Part shown: one piece after another, positions 39,612 through 59,676 of the stretch | How the letters are laid out: the number at the start of each line of letters is the position of its first letter | Numbering within the stretch: position 1 is the stretch's first letter | Program-made: the position numbers and the translations under genes | Notes under the pieces: generated by a model | Seen by the model: only the letters and a program-made list of their open reading frames with translations | The model's database searches: none | What the model was told of the DNA's origin: nothing | Sequence record: PP358550 | Length of the DNA stretch: 64,000 bases | From: Escherichia phage FL04 | Strand: one strand, 5' to 3'

Positions 39612-39941
39612 ATGTGGACAGTAGAAAAAATCGTTGACGAATCAACCGAAATTGTCTCGTGTGGCACTATTGAAGAATGTCTTAAAGCCGCTAACCGTGA
39701 ATGTATTACGGTTTATGAATCCCGTCGCGGTGATGGTAGCTTGATTCAAAGTGATTATCGTTACACCGCACATAAAATTGTATTCCGTTTCTGGGAAAAC
39801 GGTGTCAATGTCGGTGTCAGCTTACTGAAAATGTGGCGTGATTATTCCGAACGCTACTATGTTTCTCCTGATGATGGTAATGAATTTAAGACAGCAATCA
39901 CAGAAGAAAATGTAAACGAAAACTATTTCAAACTGATTTGA
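39612..39941 (+). CDS. hypothetical protein (109 aa)
   Basis: AGAGAGGA RBS. Confidence 0.55.
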   Translation: MWTVEKIVDESTEIVSCGTIEECLKAANRECITVYESRRGDGSLIQSDYRYTAHKIVFRFWENGVNVGVSLLKMWRDYSERYYVSPDDGNEFKTAITEENVNENYFKLI

Positions 39942-39956
39942 TGGGAGATTTATATT

Positions 39957-40526
39957 ATGATTCAATGTGTATTTGCTATTGGTGACACTAAAATGTCAGA
40001 TGAAAATTGGGCTTTTGGTTTTAAAGGCGGTTTACCGTGGGGGCGTCCAATTAAAAAGGACATGGAAAACTTTAAAATGCGCACTATGGGAGATGTTGAT
40101 CTTGCGGCGGTTGTAATGGGACGTAATACCTTTGAAAGTCTGCCTAAAGCACTGGAAGGTCGTCTTAATGTGGTTATTAGTACCGATGCCAGCAAGCCGA
40201 CACCGAAAGCCAAAAACGGCGACCAGCCTAATGTGTATACTGGAATTGAATTAAAGGATCTGTTAAAAGTCCTGGAGAAAACGCAAGGTTTGGTAAGTGT
40301 TATCGGTGGACCTTCCCTGATTGAAAAAGCGGTTGACTTTGCGGATCGTATTGTGTTAACATATGTTCAACGAGCAGGAATTAATGATCCGTTCGAATAT
40401 GATGTTGGTATCTCTAAGGAAATGATTCAGGAATTATATTTTGACTTTGCAACAAAAGAAGAACATAATTACTTCCTTGATGATTACCTGATCAGCGAAC
40501 AAATTTTAGAACGTAAGAAGGCGTAA
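39957..40526 (+). CDS. frd: dihydrofolate reductase
   Basis: 189 aa; FGFKGGLPWGRPIKKDMENFK, VVMGRNTFESLP, VIGGPSLIEKA matching DHFR motifs; T4 synteny (frd-td). Confidence 0.88.
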   Translation: MIQCVFAIGDTKMSDENWAFGFKGGLPWGRPIKKDMENFKMRTMGDVDLAAVVMGRNTFESLPKALEGRLNVVISTDASKPTPKAKNGDQPNVYTGIELKDLLKVLEKTQGLVSVIGGPSLIEKAVDFADRIVLTYVQRAGINDPFEYDVGISKEMIQELYFDFATKEEHNYFLDDYLISEQILERKKA

Positions 40527-40527
40527 C

Positions 40528-40620
40528 ATGAAAATTCTGACAGATTATGAGTGCAAACATTGTGGTGAATCTTTGATGTTTGCTGGTAGTCGGTGCTTAC
40601 ATTGCGGACGGGAACAATAA
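40528..40620 (+). CDS. small zinc-ribbon protein (30 aa)
   Basis: MKILTDYECKHCGESLMFAGSRCLHCGREQ; start overlaps frd stop; not in track. Confidence 0.35.
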   Translation: MKILTDYECKHCGESLMFAGSRCLHCGREQ

Positions 40621-40889
40621 TGAAAGTCGGTATTATTCAATTATGGACGGCTACCAGTGAAAACTACGCAGTAGCCGTAGATTATTACGGTTTACAATAT
40701 CTCTATGATGAAGCGAGCGCATCATGGCTTCCTGTGCAAGAAAATAGCGATATCTCAAGACCTGCTACTATATTCGACCGTGGCGTTGTCTTTATCGATA
40801 TTGACGAGACAGTAGCAAAACTGCGTAAGAAAGCAATCAATAAGAAAAAGGTGATGTGGGATGAAAGAATATTTGAAACTATTGCGTGA
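40620..40889 (+). CDS. hypothetical protein (89 aa)
   Basis: ATG 40620 overlapping upstream stop; 3-prime end overlaps td start by 29 nt. Confidence 0.45.
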   Translation: MKVGIIQLWTATSENYAVAVDYYGLQYLYDEASASWLPVQENSDISRPATIFDRGVVFIDIDETVAKLRKKAINKKKVMWDERIFETIA

Positions 40890-42093
40890 TGTTCTTGATA
40901 ATGGATGGCCTCGTGAAGACCGAACTGGGGTAGGTACGCTATCTAAATTCGGCGCAGAGATGCGAATTGATTTAAGCAAGGGTTTCCCATTACTGACCAC
41001 TAAAAAGATGGCTACAGCCTCTGTAATTGGCGAATTGCTATGGTTTATGGAGGGATCACTTGACCGCCGTCGCTTACAGGAAATTACACGCGGTAAGTTT
41101 GACGAAGAAGCCTTCGACATTTGGCGCGGCAACTGTCTTGATATGAAAGAAAAGAATCCTTTGCGATTCAATGGTTATAATGTCGGCAATATGTATGGTA
41201 TGGCATGGCGACGCAAACCGATTCATCCACACGGTGAAATCAAAATTAAGCGCGTTAAGAGCAAATATGCACATACATTTAAGCACCCGTGGGTAGAAGA
41301 CTTTACGCCAACCAATGAAACAGAAGACCGTTTATGTGCTATCTGGCGTGGTATGCGTTATGAAGAGTTTGATTCTGAATATAATCAATTCTTAGTAGCA
41401 GACCACTGGAAGACTCAATCTAATTTTGTTAATGATGCATATTGCTTGTGGGGATTCCAGGAATGGGTAGATGATGGTTATTTCGGTTATCTGCTTGATA
41501 GTGATTATCTGGGCGGGGATATTTTAGCGCCAGATACCACGATCTTTGCTAGTATGGACGTAGACACATCGAGCACTAAAGACGATGAAGAATATGTCTA
41601 TCGACCGAAGATTTGGGAAGACCAGTTACAAAACGTGATTGAACAAATTAAAAACAATCCAACGGATCGACGTATCATCATTGACTCATGGAACGTACAA
41701 GGAACACATAATGCTGTATTAGGTGTATGTCATCCTTTCGTGCAATTCTACGTCAATGAAGGTAAACTGTCTTGTATGTGGTTTCAGCGAAGCGTAGACA
41801 GCTTTTTAGGCTTGCCCTTTAACGTCGCCAGCTATGCGCTGTTAACTCACATCATAGCGAAAATGTGTGATCTTGAGGTAGGAGAACTGATTTTCTCTGG
41901 TGGAGATACTCACATTTACAAAAACCATTTTGATCAAGTTATGGAACAGTTAAGCCGTGTTCCGTTTGATAAACCAACGATTGAGTTGCCGGAATTTGAA
42001 TCTTTAGATGAGGTATTGACAAAGACTCCGAAAGACTTTAAAATTCACAACTATCAAAGCCATCCAGCAATCACCGCTCAAATGGCAGTATAA
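40861..42093 (+). CDS. td: thymidylate synthase with large internal in-frame insertion
   Basis: 410 aa; TS motifs DRTG.GT, LLWF, YG.AWR, DRRIII.SWN, active-site CHPFVQFYV, RSVDSFLGLPFN.ASYALLTHIIA, GGDTHIY; residues about 119-254 have no counterpart in canonical TS. Confidence 0.88.
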   Translation: MKEYLKLLRDVLDNGWPREDRTGVGTLSKFGAEMRIDLSKGFPLLTTKKMATASVIGELLWFMEGSLDRRRLQEITRGKFDEEAFDIWRGNCLDMKEKNPLRFNGYNVGNMYGMAWRRKPIHPHGEIKIKRVKSKYAHTFKHPWVEDFTPTNETEDRLCAIWRGMRYEEFDSEYNQFLVADHWKTQSNFVNDAYCLWGFQEWVDDGYFGYLLDSDYLGGDILAPDTTIFASMDVDTSSTKDDEEYVYRPKIWEDQLQNVIEQIKNNPTDRRIIIDSWNVQGTHNAVLGVCHPFVQFYVNEGKLSCMWFQRSVDSFLGLPFNVASYALLTHIIAKMCDLEVGELIFSGGDTHIYKNHFDQVMEQLSRVPFDKPTIELPEFESLDEVLTKTPKDFKIHNYQSHPAITAQMAV

Positions 42094-54840: not shown

Positions 54841-55309
54841 TAATGAAGGGGCGAAAGCCCCTAAACCTAAAAAATTGTCAAAGAAAGAGCAACGCCAGAT
54901 CCTGAAAATGAAATATGGTGGACGTTGTGCCTATTGTGGTGAGGAATTAGGGGATCGCTGGCACGCAGACCACATCAAACCAGTATTGCGACGCTCAAAG
55001 GTAGTCTATGATGAAAATGGACGAATTGTCCGTAATGATGATGGATCGTGGAAGTATAAGGTTGTAGGAATGCATAAACCGGAGCATGATATACTTGATA
55101 ACATGAATCCGGCATGTGTGCAATGCAATCTTTATAAAAGCTGCATGGGCTTAGAATCCTGGCGTAAGTGTATACGCGAGAACTTCCAGAAGTACATTCA
55201 GCGCAATATGGGATTGCGAGCGGCTAAACGCTTTGGCTTGCTGTCAATCCACGACCAGCCAGTAGAATTTTATTTCGAAAAGTACGATCGCGAGCATCAA
55301 GAAAAATAA
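54833..55309 (+). CDS. HNH endonuclease
   Basis: 158 aa; CAYCGEEL...WHADHIKP...NMNPACVQCN HNH motif; start overlaps ligase stop. Confidence 0.7.
   Translation: MCDNEGAKAPKPKKLSKKEQRQILKMKYGGRCAYCGEELGDRWHADHIKPVLRRSKVVYDENGRIVRNDDGSWKYKVVGMHKPEHDILDNMNPACVQCNLYKSCMGLESWRKCIRENFQKYIQRNMGLRAAKRFGLLSIHDQPVEFYFEKYDREHQEK
54848..54861 (+). other. GC hairpin GGGGC-GAAA-GCCCC within the first codons of the HNH gene
   Basis: Same core as hairpins at 30017 and 42099. Confidence 0.45.
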
Positions 55310-55321
55310 TTCAAAAAGTTG

Positions 55322-55350
55322 TTGACAGGGGATCACGTATCCCCTATACT
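55322..55350 (+). promoter_or_regulatory. PeSL-type early promoter with palindromic spacer
   Basis: TTGACA-GGGGATCACGTATCCCC-TATACT. Confidence 0.65.
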
Positions 55351-55395
55351 ACACACATCAAAACGAAACACACTTTCTTAAACGGAGAATCAAAA

Positions 55396-55707
55396 ATGAA
55401 ATACATCGTAACGCTGCCAATGATTGACTTCGACGGAACCATGAACACTCAGAAGACCATGAGCGCGGAGAACCAACTGAAAAACGCTATCCTGATTCGT
55501 GAAGTTCGCAAGGCACTGGCAAAAGAATTTAACACCAAAATTCATTCTGTAACTGGCGAACGTTTCGCGGATCATCTTGATATCAATATCAAACCAGTGC
55601 GCAACGGTGTTATCTCTGTAACAACCAACCGCCCACATGCTGACGCTGATAATCTGACCGCTCGCGCAGAAGATGTAATTATGACCGTTATCATGGAAAA
55701 ACTTTAA
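55396..55707 (+). CDS. hypothetical protein (103 aa)
   Basis: ACGGAGAATCAAAAATG. Confidence 0.6.
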   Translation: MKYIVTLPMIDFDGTMNTQKTMSAENQLKNAILIREVRKALAKEFNTKIHSVTGERFADHLDINIKPVRNGVISVTTNRPHADADNLTARAEDVIMTVIMEKL

Positions 55708-55715
55708 AAAAGTTG

Positions 55716-55745
55716 TTGACAGGGGAGGTTAAACTCCCCTATAAT
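55716..55745 (+). promoter_or_regulatory. PeSL-type early promoter with palindromic spacer
   Basis: TTGACA-GGGGAGGTTAAACTCCCC-TATAAT. Confidence 0.65.
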
Positions 55746-55779
55746 ACACACATACCGAAACGAACTAGGAGAATCAATT

Positions 55780-55959
55780 ATGAACTTCAACGAAATCATC
55801 GCTAAAATCCGCTACAACGAAGAAACCATTGAACTGATGCAAAACAATATCACCAATGGCTATATGATTGCAGCGTCACAAGAAATCATTGATTTGACAG
55901 TAGCAGAAAATGCTCAGTTGAAACATCAACTTTCAACGGCTGGCGTAATTGTTATGTAA
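55780..55959 (+). CDS. hypothetical small protein (59 aa)
   Basis: AGGAGAATCAATTATG; not in track. Confidence 0.45.
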   Translation: MNFNEIIAKIRYNEETIELMQNNITNGYMIAASQEIIDLTVAENAQLKHQLSTAGVIVM

Positions 55960-55976
55960 TAAAGAGAGGTGACTAA

Positions 55977-56297
55977 ATGGCAAAAGTTCAGGTAGGCGAG
56001 GTCTTCAAAATGGAAGACCACACCGTGGAAGATATGAAAGGCGCAGTATTGAAAGTAATTAATTCAATGTGGCGTAGTGTGCTTTACATCAACTTTATCG
56101 ACGGTGATGTGTGGTGGGCTAGCGATAGCGTTAAATGGGATGAGGAAGGTAGTCTGATTATCAAGTTCTACAAAGGTCATACTCACTGGTTAGGATCAGA
56201 GGATGTTGTAGAAGTTCTGGCGGTTGATGTTATGCCAGGAGAGATAGAGAATCTTAGCGGAACAGCAAAAGAAGCATTGACACGCCATTTTGCGTAA
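55977..56297 (+). CDS. hypothetical protein (106 aa)
   Basis: AGAGAGGTGACTAAATG. Confidence 0.55.
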   Translation: MAKVQVGEVFKMEDHTVEDMKGAVLKVINSMWRSVLYINFIDGDVWWASDSVKWDEEGSLIIKFYKGHTHWLGSEDVVEVLAVDVMPGEIENLSGTAKEALTRHFA

Positions 56298-56353
56298 TGT
56301 AGTATAACAATAATCGGGAGGGTAATACTCTCCCACAAATTGAGGATAATATT

Positions 56354-56872
56354 ATGTGTGGTCTTAAAATGGTTGCTGAATACAAGCGGTCTGGTAATGT
56401 TATGATGTATCGACGCAATACCAACGAAGACTGGAAACCTTCCAAACGAATTAAATCCATCCAGACGTTTATGAATAACATAAAAGAAAACCTTTTCGTT
56501 AAGCGTGCTCTGGTGTTGGACATTGGGAAGTTTACGAAGCTGTATAATTTTGAGGAAAATACTATGGAACATACTAATTTGTTTGTAGCCGAACCTTTCG
56601 TTGAAGGCAATAAAAATCTTGCTAAAACAATCATTTTGTATTCGGATTGGATCTTTTATATCGATGGGAATTTAGACGTATATTGTCGCACAACTCCAAA
56701 TGATTCGTTTTATATCGAAGAAAACGACACTCATAATCATTGGTATGATGGAAACGACAAAACAGAACTAGCTGTTGTCCTAGCGTCAGACGTAGAACCT
56801 GAAAACGCGGACAAAGTAGCAGACAAATTTATGACGTACGCATATCAAGATAAAGATGAAGATGAAGAATAA
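56354..56872 (+). CDS. hypothetical protein (172 aa)
   Basis: TGAGGATAATATTATG. Confidence 0.55.
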   Translation: MCGLKMVAEYKRSGNVMMYRRNTNEDWKPSKRIKSIQTFMNNIKENLFVKRALVLDIGKFTKLYNFEENTMEHTNLFVAEPFVEGNKNLAKTIILYSDWIFYIDGNLDVYCRTTPNDSFYIEENDTHNHWYDGNDKTELAVVLASDVEPENADKVADKFMTYAYQDKDEDEE

Positions 56873-56879
56873 AAAGTTG

Positions 56880-56909
56880 TTGACAGGGGATCGGGAGATC
56901 CCCTATAAT
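56880..56909 (+). promoter_or_regulatory. PeSL-type early promoter with palindromic spacer
   Basis: TTGACA-GGGGATCGGGAGATCCCC-TATAAT. Confidence 0.65.
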
Positions 56910-56942
56910 ACACACATACCGAAACGAAATAGGAGAATCAAA

Positions 56943-57110
56943 ATGTTCGAGACTAAAGCAGCATGTGAAGCATATATCATTGAAACCCACGGCGAAGATT
57001 ATCTGAAATTTGACATTGTAGTAGCACAGAAGATTGTAGGGATGGTTGCGAAATACCTCGGAGTTAAAGAAGGTTACTATCCTAGCAACGCACCAGAAAT
57101 TAACAAATAA
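56943..57110 (+). CDS. hypothetical small protein (55 aa)
   Basis: AGGAGAATCAAAATG. Confidence 0.5.
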   Translation: MFETKAACEAYIIETHGEDYLKFDIVVAQKIVGMVAKYLGVKEGYYPSNAPEINK

Positions 57111-57124
57111 TTTTATAAAAAGTG

Positions 57125-57153
57125 TTGACAGGGGAGGATAACTCCCCTACAAT
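57125..57153 (+). promoter_or_regulatory. PeSL-type early promoter with palindromic spacer
   Basis: TTGACA-GGGGAGGATAACTCCCC-TACAAT; heads a six-gene operon. Confidence 0.65.
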
Positions 57154-57193
57154 ACAACCATCAAGACTAGATACCACTTAGGAGAATCAAACA

Positions 57194-57445
57194 ATGGCTA
57201 ACATCGAAACCGCAAAGAAAATCGCTAAAGACCTGAACGTTAAAGGCTTCCGTAAACTGAAATTACAGCGTGTACGCTACACCATCGGCAAACAGTGCTC
57301 TTTCATGAGCGAAGAAGTTGCTAACAGCCTCATTGATAACCTGATTGCGGCTGGCTGGGAAGTTGCGGATCTGAAAACTTGCCGCGAACTGGCTAACAAA
57401 GGTCTTTTAGATTCTGTTACTATCAAACCAATGGGGGCAGCGTGA
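57194..57445 (+). CDS. hypothetical protein (83 aa)
   Basis: First 16 nt of the ORF (ATGGCTAACATCGAAA) identical to ORF at 59748. Confidence 0.6.
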   Translation: MANIETAKKIAKDLNVKGFRKLKLQRVRYTIGKQCSFMSEEVANSLIDNLIAAGWEVADLKTCRELANKGLLDSVTIKPMGAA

Positions 57446-57687
57446 AAAGAAAATTAATTAAACGCAATAAGGAATTTCTTAATAACTGCATTAAGGCCGC
57501 TAATGGTTGGCCTTTGTGCCTCTTCCTTTATGATTGGTATTCTAAACAATCGGCTGAGGAAGCACGACACTATAAGAAGATCAGAAAAGAATCATATACA
57601 AAACAAGGCCGCATTAATGGACTTTACTTAATGTGGCACGGCAAAGAACCTTCTAAAATCTGTGTTGGATTAAAGGGGCGTATATGA
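57442..57687 (+). CDS. hypothetical protein (81 aa, GTG start)
   Basis: GTG overlapping upstream stop; stop overlaps next ATG. Confidence 0.5.
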   Translation: MKRKLIKRNKEFLNNCIKAANGWPLCLFLYDWYSKQSAEEARHYKKIRKESYTKQGRINGLYLMWHGKEPSKICVGLKGRI

Positions 57688-58400
57688 AACAAAAATTAAT
57701 ATTCTGTAACTTTGACGGATCGGGGATAATGGGGCTAGAATGGGCTAAAGCAGGTCATAAGGTAGTCTGCTTTAATGCGGATGACGCCGACCACGGTACA
57801 TACAAAAAGTATAATACCAGATTTGAACACCCAAACATTACCTATGTAAACACATGGATTGATTTGAACTGGCTAGAAAGAGCAATGGACCTTGAATGGG
57901 GGAAACCGGATATTATCTTTGCATTCCCACCGTGCACCAATTTAGCTGTTAGTGGCGCTGCACACTTTGAACGAAAGAAACGAGAACAAGGACCATTGAT
58001 TCAAGTTCATGATGTAAGGGCAGCTAAAATAACCGCTTATTTGGGTGAATGGCTAGGAGTTCCCTACATGATAGAGAATCCTGTAAGCGTTATCTCTAGC
58101 ATGTGGCGTAAGCCTGATTACATGTTCCACCCGTGGGAATATGGCGGTTATTTGCCGGAAGATGATAAACATCCTACTTTTCCTGAGTATATCGCCGCCC
58201 GTGATATGTACCCGAAAAAGACTTGCTTATGGACCGGACAAGGCTTTATAATGCCAGAAAAGAAACCGTTGCAGATTAATAAAGGGTACAGTAAACAGCA
58301 TTCTAAGCTAGGCGGGAAAGGAACGAAAACAAAGACTATCAGGTCACTTACCCCGCGAGGATTCGCAAAGGCAGTATTTGAAGCAAATAAGGATCTATGA
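57684..58400 (+). CDS. C5-cytosine methyltransferase-like protein (minimal catalytic core, no obvious target-recognition domain)
   Basis: 238 aa; motif I-like FCNFDGSGIMGLEWAKAGHKVVCFNADD, motif IV-like IIFAFPPCTNLAVSGAA (Pro-Cys), motif VI-like YMIENPVS; no recognisable motif VIII/TRD. Confidence 0.6.
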   Translation: MKQKLIFCNFDGSGIMGLEWAKAGHKVVCFNADDADHGTYKKYNTRFEHPNITYVNTWIDLNWLERAMDLEWGKPDIIFAFPPCTNLAVSGAAHFERKKREQGPLIQVHDVRAAKITAYLGEWLGVPYMIENPVSVISSMWRKPDYMFHPWEYGGYLPEDDKHPTFPEYIAARDMYPKKTCLWTGQGFIMPEKKPLQINKGYSKQHSKLGGKGTKTKTIRSLTPRGFAKAVFEANKDL

Positions 58401-58735
58401 TGAGATTGTTTAAGTATTCGCTAACGTCAAATTACGATAAACAAGGTCATTGCATCCGTTGCCCTGATTGTCATAGCCATAACATCGAAAGCAAGATCAC
58501 CGATCATATTGATGGACTTTGGTCGCCAGCAAGTGAAATAGAATACTATTGCGCTGATTGTGGAATTGTAGTAGCATATTGGGCATACGGATCATATGAT
58601 CCATACTTCCAGATGGGAGAACGTTCAATCCCTGCGCTTATCTGGAGAATTAAGAACAATATCCGCTATTCATGGGATGAGTTCTTAAAAGATATTGATT
58701 TACGTGATGATCCATTCAGGAGAACTATATTATGA
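58397..58735 (+). CDS. zinc-ribbon protein (112 aa)
   Basis: CIRCPDCHSH ... CADCG; start overlaps upstream stop (ATGA). Confidence 0.55.
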   Translation: MMRLFKYSLTSNYDKQGHCIRCPDCHSHNIESKITDHIDGLWSPASEIEYYCADCGIVVAYWAYGSYDPYFQMGERSIPALIWRIKNNIRYSWDEFLKDIDLRDDPFRRTIL

Positions 58736-58910
58736 TAACACCACAACTACACGGTAAAGAGATTTGCGATCTTACTTGGGAAGAGTTGGTCATGTATCGC
58801 GACACCTACAAATGGTTTGAATCCATGAAAGAATTTGTAGCAGCAGTACGAGAAGAAATGAGCATTCGCCAGTATGCGGACGCATATATTGAAAAGGTAA
58901 GCACACTATG
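58731..58910 (+). CDS. hypothetical small protein (59 aa)
   Basis: Overlapping start/stop with neighbours; not in track. Confidence 0.4.
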
Positions 58911-59426
58911 AACCGTTTAACGCCTAAACGCCGTTACTATACCAATACTAAAAACTTTGTCATCTCTGTTTATGAGGCGTGGTTAGAAGATGGCTTTATC
59001 AACATGAACCCAGATTATCAGCGTCCTTTGGTATGGGACACCGAAAACAAACGTATGTTTATCGAAAACCTGATTAATGATTTTCCGGTTGGTGCTATCG
59101 CAATGGCTAAGATTGATGATGGCTCTCGCTATGAGATCGAAATCGTGGACGGTAAACAGCGTTTAAACGCAATATTCTCCTTCATGAAGGATGAGTTTAG
59201 CATTGCTGGTAATGATGATTCTATGTTGTATTACAGTGATTTTACGCCAGCAGAAAAGCGACGTTTCCGAAATCTCGGACTACCCGCGATCATGATGGAA
59301 GAGAGCACACGAGAAGACCGATTAGAGTATTTCTACAAAACAAACTTTTTCGGTGTGCCTCAATCGGAAGAACATCGCCAGCATGTGATTGCCCTATTGC
59401 AAGATGAGCAATTAAAAAATAACTAA
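58908..59426 (+). CDS. stand-alone DUF262 / ParB-like (GmrS N-terminal type) domain protein
   Basis: 172 aa; DYQRPLVW and VDGKQRLNAIF (DGQQR-like) motifs; start overlaps upstream stop. Confidence 0.6.
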   Translation: MNRLTPKRRYYTNTKNFVISVYEAWLEDGFINMNPDYQRPLVWDTENKRMFIENLINDFPVGAIAMAKIDDGSRYEIEIVDGKQRLNAIFSFMKDEFSIAGNDDSMLYYSDFTPAEKRRFRNLGLPAIMMEESTREDRLEYFYKTNFFGVPQSEEHRQHVIALLQDEQLKNN

Positions 59427-59433
59427 AAAGTTG

Positions 59434-59462
59434 TTGACAGGGGATCATCGATCCCCTATAAT
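59434..59462 (+). promoter_or_regulatory. PeSL-type early promoter with palindromic spacer
   Basis: TTGACA-GGGGATCATCGATCCCC-TATAAT. Confidence 0.65.
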
Positions 59463-59496
59463 ACACACATACCGAAACGAACTAGGAGAATCAAAC

Positions 59497-59676
59497 ATGA
59501 AACACTTAACCATCGAATCGGCAATCATCGCAATCGCTAAAGTTCAAGCGGCTTATAATTGCACTGACATTGAAGCCATTTCAAAAATGCAAGCAGAAGC
59601 AGCAAAAGCGGGTGACGAGAAATCTTTAGATGTTCTCTGCGAAATCAAAGCAGAATTGATTTCAAAAATGTTCTAA
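59497..59676 (+). CDS. hypothetical small protein (59 aa)
   Basis: AGGAGAATCAAACATG. Confidence 0.5.
   Translation: MKHLTIESAIIAIAKVQAAYNCTDIEAISKMQAEAAKAGDEKSLDVLCEIKAELISKMF

Follow-up and report, generated by a model that had tools for sequence, protein, structure and literature searches.

Does the six-gene operon at positions 57125 to 59426 of the Escherichia phage FL04 sequence (record PP358550) encode a joint system acting on DNA, or do its genes merely share a promoter? The stretch analyzed, referred to below as the window, comprises 64,000 nucleotides, and the genes are called g1 to g6 in their order on the + strand. The question is raised by two of the products: that of g3 resembles DNA C5-cytosine methyltransferases and that of g6 is a stand-alone DUF262 (ParB-like) protein. 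An earlier interpretation made from the letters of the DNA (the sequence-only reading) saw in the operon a combination that it did not recognise as a described T-even phage module and considered that it could be a DNA-modification, anti-restriction or superinfection-exclusion system. The observation itself proved to be real and well above chance, and the domain identifications are correct. A novel combined module, however, is not supported: the gene families differ in distribution and are not linked outside Krischvirus, the methyltransferase family is already annotated, and gene shuffling by PeSL promoter cassettes has been published. The region is probably one early sigma-70-driven unit in the hyperplastic region of a Krischvirus (RB49-like) genome, recombined through PeSLs from accessory genes that work independently of each other.

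At each end of the unit stands a consensus sigma-70 promoter whose -35 and -10 hexamers flank a GC-rich stem-loop. The PeSL early promoter of the operon (57125-57153, + strand) has the sequence TTGACA-GGGGAGGATAACTCCCC-TACAAT, in which the 17-nt spacer holds the hairpin GGGGAG..CTCCCC; the next cassette (59434-59462, + strand) reads TTGACA-GGGGATCATCGATCCCC-TATAAT, also with a 17-nt spacer, and has the hairpin GGGGATC..GATCCCC. In total, five cassettes with such a spacer hairpin (G4...C4) were found in the window, each of them on the + strand; between 57125 and 59434 a cassette scan detected no further one. This agrees with the single PeSL-type promoter of the sequence-only reading. Its six same-strand open reading frames (ORFs; 57194-59426, + strand) and their overlaps were confirmed: all five junctions are 4-nt stop/start overlaps, GTGA at 57442 and ATGA at 57684, 58397, 58732 and 58908. 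A purine-rich Shine-Dalgarno-like stretch precedes every start. In phages RB49 and phi1, PeSLs are strong sigma-70-like early promoters with stem-loops that are effective terminators, and they drive modular shuffling in hyperplastic regions (PMC2839356). The cassettes described here share with those of RB49/phi1 (Arbiol et al. 2010; Comeau et al. 2014) the TTGACA/TATAAT consensus, the G4...C4 spacer hairpin and the bounding of short same-strand units; there is no essential difference, although the present unit, with six cistrons, is longer than most. By analogy with the published PeSLs (PMC2839356), the stem-loop of the PeSL at 57125 would also terminate the upstream unit. Host RNA polymerase would initiate at this PeSL, the six cistrons would be translated as a chain via the ATGA/GTGA overlaps, and the transcript would end at the stem-loop of the PeSL at 59434, which doubles as operon terminator and as promoter for a small gene (59498-59676).

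The operon is well conserved within the genus. Region 57100-59480 matched 63 phage records, 56 of which covered at least 80% of it at about 97-99% identity, the best match being phage kaaroe (99.2%), and practically every close relative carries the genes in intact form. With the exception of g5, the operon corresponds to RB49 ORFs p190, p189.1, p189, p188 and p187, kept at 97% or more in 56 Krischvirus records, and is therefore not new among the relatives of T-even phages. The individual families have different ranges: g1, g2, g4 and g6 were detected in 56, 171, 277 and 325 phage records, respectively, while tblastn matches to g3 occurred in 1581 and to g5 in just one of 50,697 records. Linkage was analyzed at 80 viral loci with g3 homologs (79 of them non-Krischvirus, 6 kb on either side) and at 80 loci with short DUF262 genes (78 non-Krischvirus, 10 kb on either side). 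Relatives of g1, g2, g4, g5 or g6 were present within 6 kb at none of the 79 loci, and relatives of g1-g5 within 10 kb at none of the 78. The DUF262 genes of RB16, Slopekvirus and ST64B have contexts with nothing in common with the operon, and clustering of the neighbours of short DUF262 genes revealed only lineage-specific synteny, which never involved more than 12 loci of a single phage group. None of 60 rank-spread g3 matches came from the kind of T4-like phage (170-180 kb) in which g6 is found, and it therefore seems that the g3 and g6 families occur in one genome in Krischvirus only. Colinearity with kaaroe, RB49 and phage SAP begins exactly at a PeSL, at 56871, with different cassettes upstream. 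This breakpoint, together with the insertion of g5 and the loss of g2 described below, is the signature to be expected of PeSL-mediated cassette assembly and not of a co-evolving module.

What, then, do the individual genes encode? On sequence grounds, g3 (57684-58400, + strand; 238 aa) is assigned to a very common, already annotated family of short phage 'Dcm-like' methyltransferases (about 225-250 aa). It falls into phrog_757, 'DNA methyltransferase' (PHROGs, 8e-91), and has 7314 homologs, nearly all of 220-260 aa among the 120 matches listed; the phages matched include Kagunavirus, Hanrivervirus, ~48-53-kb Klebsiella, rV5-like and ~140-150-kb Salmonella phages. Conservation was scored on an alignment of 44 homologs of about 60% identity. 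Motif I (F10-D-G12-S13-G14, the FxGxG loop binding S-adenosylmethionine, SAM), the Pro-Cys motif IV (P82-P83-C84) and the ENV-like motif VI (E131-N132-P133), all three recognized by the sequence-only reading, are invariant; K178 and an I-R-S-L-T-P-R-G block show little or no variation. The objection that the catalytic cysteine region might not be conserved in homologs fails, because P82-P83-C84 does not vary. The same reading had seen no recognisable target-recognition domain (TRD). There is indeed no large TRD, but its place is taken, as in DNMT3A/B, by a compact, highly conserved insert of ~70 residues (about 145-215), with invariant residues in the H163 region and at D174, Y176, K178, T180 and W183. 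The insert is much smaller than bacterial TRDs and on a par with that of DNMT3.

A search of the PDB with the g3 sequence alone gave no match and the family profile reached only an E-value of about 1, so that a comparison of folds was needed. The AlphaFold2 (AF2) model (pLDDT 91.5, pTM 0.90) has a methyltransferase fold; its best PDB matches in Foldseek were the catalytic domains of DNMT3A/B (E 1e-7), and DNMT3A/B and bacterial DNA methyltransferases dominated the structural matches. Compared with classical type II C5-methyltransferases (M.HhaI, M.HaeIII, E. coli Dcm; PF00145), g3 is ~90-240 residues shorter, has no large TRD and shows marginal sequence similarity. No nuclease signature was detected in the neighbours of g3 with Pfam, PHROGs, NCBIfam or PADLOC; with no cognate nuclease beside it, g3 is an orphan methyltransferase.

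A close relative of g3 has been studied experimentally. A preprint identified the trigger of retron Ec86 as a 711-bp 'Dcm' gene carried by K42, a phage strain of KarlJaspers Bas06, and its authors superposed an AF2 model of the enzyme on DNMT3A (10.1101/2023.08.16.553469). With K42 Dcm, 5-methylcytosine (5mC) was detected on the multicopy single-stranded DNA (msDNA) of the retron by liquid chromatography-mass spectrometry, and the effect was mapped to a CCTGG site; the C82A/E128A/K175A/K176A form, in which K175 and K176 were the authors' predicted substrate-binding residues, was inactive in retron-triggering assays and was the negative control of the methylation experiment (10.1101/2023.08.16.553469). 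The Bas06 gene, bas06_0055 (MZ501090, 40087-40797), is annotated 'Dcm-like C5 cytosine methyltransferase'. Its product and that of g3 are 55% identical end to end (E 6e-92), and C84, E131, K178 and K179 of g3 align with the mutated C82, E128, K175 and K176. By this identity and the aligned residues, g3 belongs to a family that is known and widely annotated and of which one member has been shown by experiment to be active. The two proteins are also alike in length (236 and 238 aa), in the positions of the catalytic Cys, Glu and Lys-Lys, in having DNMT3A/B as best structural match, and in being orphans without a cognate nuclease. They differ in context, g3 being part of an early operon of a T4-like myovirus and bas06_0055 belonging to a Hanrivervirus (Drexlerviridae, ~51.5-kb phage). 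They also differ in the loop around 195-208 ('GYSKQHSKLGGK' versus 'DKDNPGWAKTGGK'), and the target motif may therefore differ as well; across the family this loop exists as two sequence types, so that specificity could vary.

From this relationship we infer that the present copy of g3 would be an active orphan SAM-dependent DNA C5-cytosine methyltransferase. Cys84 would attack C6 of a flipped-out cytosine and Glu131 would protonate N3, while the insert at about 145-215, including K178/K179, would read a short motif in the manner of the small TRD of DNMT3; this motif would most probably be CCWGG or, with relaxed specificity, CCNGG. Phage DNA methylated during replication would be protected from EcoRII/SsoII-type restriction enzymes; as a side effect, the methylation would expose the phage to methylation sensors such as retron Ec86. 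In the window CCWGG occurs 28 times versus about 68 expected, an under-representation of about 2.4-fold; this scarcity does not identify the target of g3.

A possible clue to the motif came up in the comparison of two other Krischvirus phages. A 2026 study described canonical cytosines in Krischvirus TB34 and 5-hydroxymethylcytosine (hmC) or its glucosylated form in SAP, which is 99.96% identical, and did not identify the pathway (PMC13390438). The operon is present in both phages, and the published variant table lists no difference inside it (SAP 39772-41827); as the cause of the difference in modification it was for this reason rejected. The 12 single-nucleotide differences between TB34 and SAP that were inspected are all of one kind, a C>T change of the middle base of 5'-CCCGG-3' (G>A when read from the opposite strand). 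They occupy 12 of the 22 CCSGG sites that lie in the 79 kb covered (SAP 1-45000 and 107000-141000; Table S5 of PMC13390438). The capsid site, the single site compared, is CCCGG in RB49, MIZ2 and kvi, as in SAP, and TB34 is therefore the outlier. The rest of the variant table consists of 1-nt indels in essential genes, which point to assembly error. The laboratory that described TB34 sequences bacterial genomes with MinION R9.4.1 (the platform is stated for bacterial genomes only). Whether miscalls or deamination, the CCCGG-locked changes could stem from cytosine methylation of CCNGG or CCGG by the enzyme of the phage; a simple artefact of the basecaller is another possible cause. A number of 6-bp palindromes are absent from the window (1-64000): AAGCTT (0 observed, 15 expected), AGCGCT (0, 14), CCGCGG (0, 12), AGTACT (0, 11.8) and ACCGGT (0, 9.9), and GGCC occurs at 0.42 of expectation. 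Such strong avoidance of restriction sites is consistent with a phage of largely unmodified DNA.

The last gene, g6 (58908-59426, + strand; 172 aa), is the sole truly uncharacterised element of interest in the operon. That its product is a DUF262 (ParB-like) protein was confirmed by a match to Pfam GmrSD_N (5.2e-20) and by the motif D81-G82-K83-Q84-R85 of the DGQQR type; the gene has no NCBIfam match, and its best PADLOC matches, NsnA (8e-21) and PD-T4-2_A (6e-12), are to the N-terminal part of longer proteins. An exhaustive search of representatives returned 6097 matches, including many stand-alone proteins of 150-190 aa and many proteins of 250-290 aa with DUF262 at the C-terminus (e.g. P0145, P0152, P0153, P0159). 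The ~120 residues that precede the domain in the latter have no Pfam match; the architecture of these proteins, which are related to the short family, is uncharacterised. Among 47 short homologs, Y37-Q38-R39, W43, Q84 and N146 do not vary, and D81, G82, R85 and G149 hardly do. The family profile matched BrxU (7p9k, 3.8e-9), other DUF262 proteins and SspE. The AF2 model (pLDDT 95.7) consists of the N-domain and one terminal helix only; in Foldseek it matched ParB-CTP structures, PadC, Noc, BrxU, KorB and sulfiredoxin, with ParB, PadC, Noc and BrxU at the top, so that the predicted ParB-like fold was found as well.

The comparison with characterised proteins shows what g6 lacks. In GmrSD, BrxU and SspE a DUF262 NTPase is joined to a DUF1524/HNH nuclease; g6 matches their N-terminal DUF262 part, with its QR...W and DGxQR motifs, but stops after the NTPase domain, and neither a DUF1524/HNH domain nor an adjacent GmrD gene was detected with Pfam, NCBIfam or PADLOC. 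With no nuclease domain or partner gene it is not a restriction enzyme on its own. With the ParB, Noc and KorB clamps, PadC, Srx and Osa it shares the ParB/Srx fold as top match and a conserved arginine-rich nucleotide pocket. It differs from them in that its model lacks the helix-turn-helix DNA-binding and C-terminal dimerisation domains of canonical ParB clamps, at 8-17% identity. Finally, no dnd or dpd homologs were found in the operon or its flanks with Pfam and NCBIfam, and the cluster in which DndB/DpdB proteins occur is not present. Taken together, g6 is a ParB/GmrS-type nucleotide-binding domain with an apparently functional pocket and nothing else. Any role of g6 we infer from these features: it would be a single-domain nucleotide-binding switch of the ParB/GmrS type, with an intact YQR/DGKQR pocket, that would act alone, as in RB16-like, Slopekvirus and ST64B-like phages, and our best guess is that it binds a host or phage partner in an NTP-dependent manner.

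An alternative suggested by the PADLOC matches and by the closest characterised domain relatives, the defence proteins BrxU and SspE, is that g6 is an anti-defence decoy, which heterodimerises with or competes against host DUF262 immune enzymes (GmrSD/BrxU, SspE, Menshen NsnA) and may thereby offset the type IV liability that 5mC made by g3 would bring. It would be expressed early with other host-takeover genes, alt lying just downstream; BrxU cleaves 5mC-containing DNA (PMC13390438), and one host type IV enzyme is known to depend on an additional stand-alone subunit resembling GmrS (PMC12373910). However, TB34 carries g6 and its DNA is no substrate of BrxU in vitro, so that protection is perhaps needless (PMC13390438). 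Moreover, g6 is at most 40% identical to any long DUF262 protein, which gives no sign of recent capture of a host enzyme, a passive decoy does not require a strictly conserved catalytic-type pocket, and the idea has no experimental support. We regard a decoy as unlikely, if worth keeping in mind.

The view that g3 and g6 are independent genes, the former an active DNA methyltransferase, has to be set against several observations that weigh against it. The match of g3 to Pfam PF00145 (E 0.01, 15.7 bits) is under the gathering cut-off of 22, and E 0.01 or better is reached by 7 of the 44 family members (best 1.3e-6). No methylation of TB34 virion DNA was reported by high-performance liquid chromatography/mass spectrometry (PMC13390438). 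The CCWGG assignment of the K42 enzyme is based on a single mutated msDNA site. Short stand-alone DUF262 proteins are not known to have been the subject of any experiment. In addition, all ~56 Krischvirus genomes keep g1, g3, g4 and g6 as a tightly coupled group, which is compatible with a cooperation evolved in that genus only, and tblastn may overlook very divergent small partners at the other loci.

The first two of these points could be explained if g3 were no DNA methyltransferase here and acted on RNA, like Dnmt2, or transferred another group, such as carboxymethyl from carboxy-SAM (Cx-SAM). Against this stand the 55% full-length identity to an enzyme type shown to make 5mC in DNA and the predominance of DNMT3A/B and bacterial DNA methyltransferases among the structural matches, and we consider it very improbable. 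Nor is the chromatographic result for TB34 an argument against activity of g3: according to site counts, methylation at a rare motif of 5 bp would affect no more than about 0.04% of nucleotides, an amount that may well escape the assay.

The togetherness in Krischvirus also speaks for one form of the module hypothesis, in which the methyltransferase, the Zn ribbon and the DUF262 protein are one DNA-modification machine. The ParB-like NTPase would load or target a TRD-poor methyltransferase, as in ParB-methyltransferase fusions or DpdA/DpdB, and the machine could underlie the unexplained cytosine modification of SAP. ParB-like ATPases assist DNA-modifying enzymes in some known cases. The shared operon with overlapping stop/start codons in ~56 genomes, the intact NTP pocket of g6, a recognition insert of g3 that is merely compact and the fact that no pathway has been identified for the modification of SAP (PMC13390438) would fit this idea. 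Yet the families are co-located at none of the 157 non-Krischvirus loci, each of them being abundant alone, and the K42 homolog methylates when expressed alone (10.1101/2023.08.16.553469). In FL04 and in kaaroe g5 sits between g4 and g6, and close coupling of these two is evidently unneeded. The operons of SAP and TB34 are identical, although only SAP is reported to be modified. Such a machine therefore appears improbable. There is a slim chance of another arrangement, in which within Krischvirus the methyltransferase and the stand-alone GmrS/ParB-like NTPase are a functional pair, the NTPase either loading the methyltransferase or neutralising DUF262-type type IV enzymes that attack its 5mC, and the methyltransferase may then target CCNGG rather than CCWGG, a possibility at which the C>T discrepancies at CCCGG between the SAP and TB34 assemblies hint. 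On balance, the assembly of independently working genes described above is the reading that we retain, at the strength given at the outset.

Two genes lie between g3 and g6. The sequence-only reading had placed two Zn ribbons here, but only g4 (58397-58735, + strand; 112 aa, phrog_2993) has the CxxC...CxxC pattern, forming a four-Cys Zn ribbon (C22, C25, C52, C55), followed by a WAYGxxxP tail; g5 (58732-58911, + strand) is a 59-aa ORFan with a single Cys and no family match. In Pfam, g4 matched Zn_Ribbon_TF (TFIIB-type, 6e-4), and two weak Zn-ribbon-type matches of g4 were the only ones that NCBIfam gave for the six proteins. Homologs of g4 were drawn from phage records, a word-indexed search having given its own cluster only, and occur in unrelated contexts in Nonagvirus, Felixounavirus, Suspvirus, Autographivirales, one Acinetobacter phage and one Vibrio phage. 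What is conserved in them is only the four cysteines and the WAYGxxxP tail, while His and Asn vary. We conclude that g4 encodes a small Zn-ribbon protein of a kind often met in the DNA-metabolism regions of phages, and not an HNH nuclease.

These data bear on a further possibility, a split GmrS/GmrD-like modification-dependent nuclease made of g4 and g6, by which a phage with unmodified cytosines would exclude hmC-containing T-even competitors. The original GmrS and GmrD are encoded by separate genes. The segment CxxCxxCHSHN...DH...CxxC of g4 superficially resembles a His-Me finger, g4 adjoins g6 in RB49, the DNA of Krischvirus TB34 is unmodified, and the CT596 enzyme has been described as bipartite (PMC13390438). 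In contrast to what this would predict, His and Asn vary among the members of the g4 family, Pfam shows just a TFIIB-type Zn ribbon, g4 homologs never adjoin DUF262 genes elsewhere, and g5 separates g4 from g6 in the present phage. An HNH nuclease formed by g6 and g4 was rejected on the conservation pattern of g4, and the proposal as a whole is extremely unlikely.

Relative to RB49, g5 is a precise insertion of ~177 bp between the stop of g4 and the start of g6, and the single record with a match to it is kaaroe. Like g5, both g1 and g2 are classed as ORFans. The first gene, g1 (57194-57445, + strand; 83 aa, phrog_14908), has an AGGAGA ribosome-binding site and is Krischvirus-specific, all 56 records being at least 95% identical. 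It matches positions 722-785 of the 938-position PADLOC model RT_UG35, a defence-associated reverse transcriptase, at E 2.6e-5; no other family was found for it outside Krischvirus. The second gene, g2 (57442-57687, + strand; 81 aa, phrog_7065), begins with a GTG that overlaps the stop of g1 and has distant homologs in Dhakavirus-like, ~105-110-kb Salmonella/Escherichia and ~172-kb Enterobacter phages. It is missing from a 150-kb Krischvirus-like metagenomic contig (L089, 8775-10516), where a g1-like sequence (60 aa aligned, 90% identical) directly abuts the methyltransferase gene; judged from this alignment, the contig appears to carry a further variant of the operon.

Upstream of the operon lies another PeSL cassette (56880-56909, + strand; TTGACA-18-TATAAT, spacer hairpin GGGGATC..GATCCCC), which serves one small gene, 56943-57110, a homolog of RB49p191, and forms the left boundary of colinearity with kaaroe and RB49. 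An 84-aa ORF called mechanically in 56856-57110 starts 5' of this promoter; the true gene is probably 56943-57110, with 55 aa and TAGGAGA ahead of the start. Further upstream, at 55000-56870 of the window, similarity to kaaroe, RB49 and SAP at the syntenic position is confined to PeSL repeats, and the ORFs 55977-56297 (106 aa) and 56354-56872 (172 aa) make up a different cassette.

The locus is thus a textbook case of PeSL-driven mosaicism that contains an ordinary phage orphan cytosine methyltransferase, and for these parts little changes, as the RB49 gene block, this type of mosaic region and the methyltransferase family were known beforehand. The short stand-alone DUF262 proteins, on the other hand, are a sizeable and well-conserved phage family found in 325 records, with many members of ~160-190 aa and an intact nucleotide pocket, whose nearest characterised relatives are bacterial immune nucleases. 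The cytosine chemistry of Krischvirus, in which SAP and TB34 differ, is a published puzzle, and for it the probably active Dcm-like enzyme together with the CCCGG discrepancies gives a concrete motif to test.

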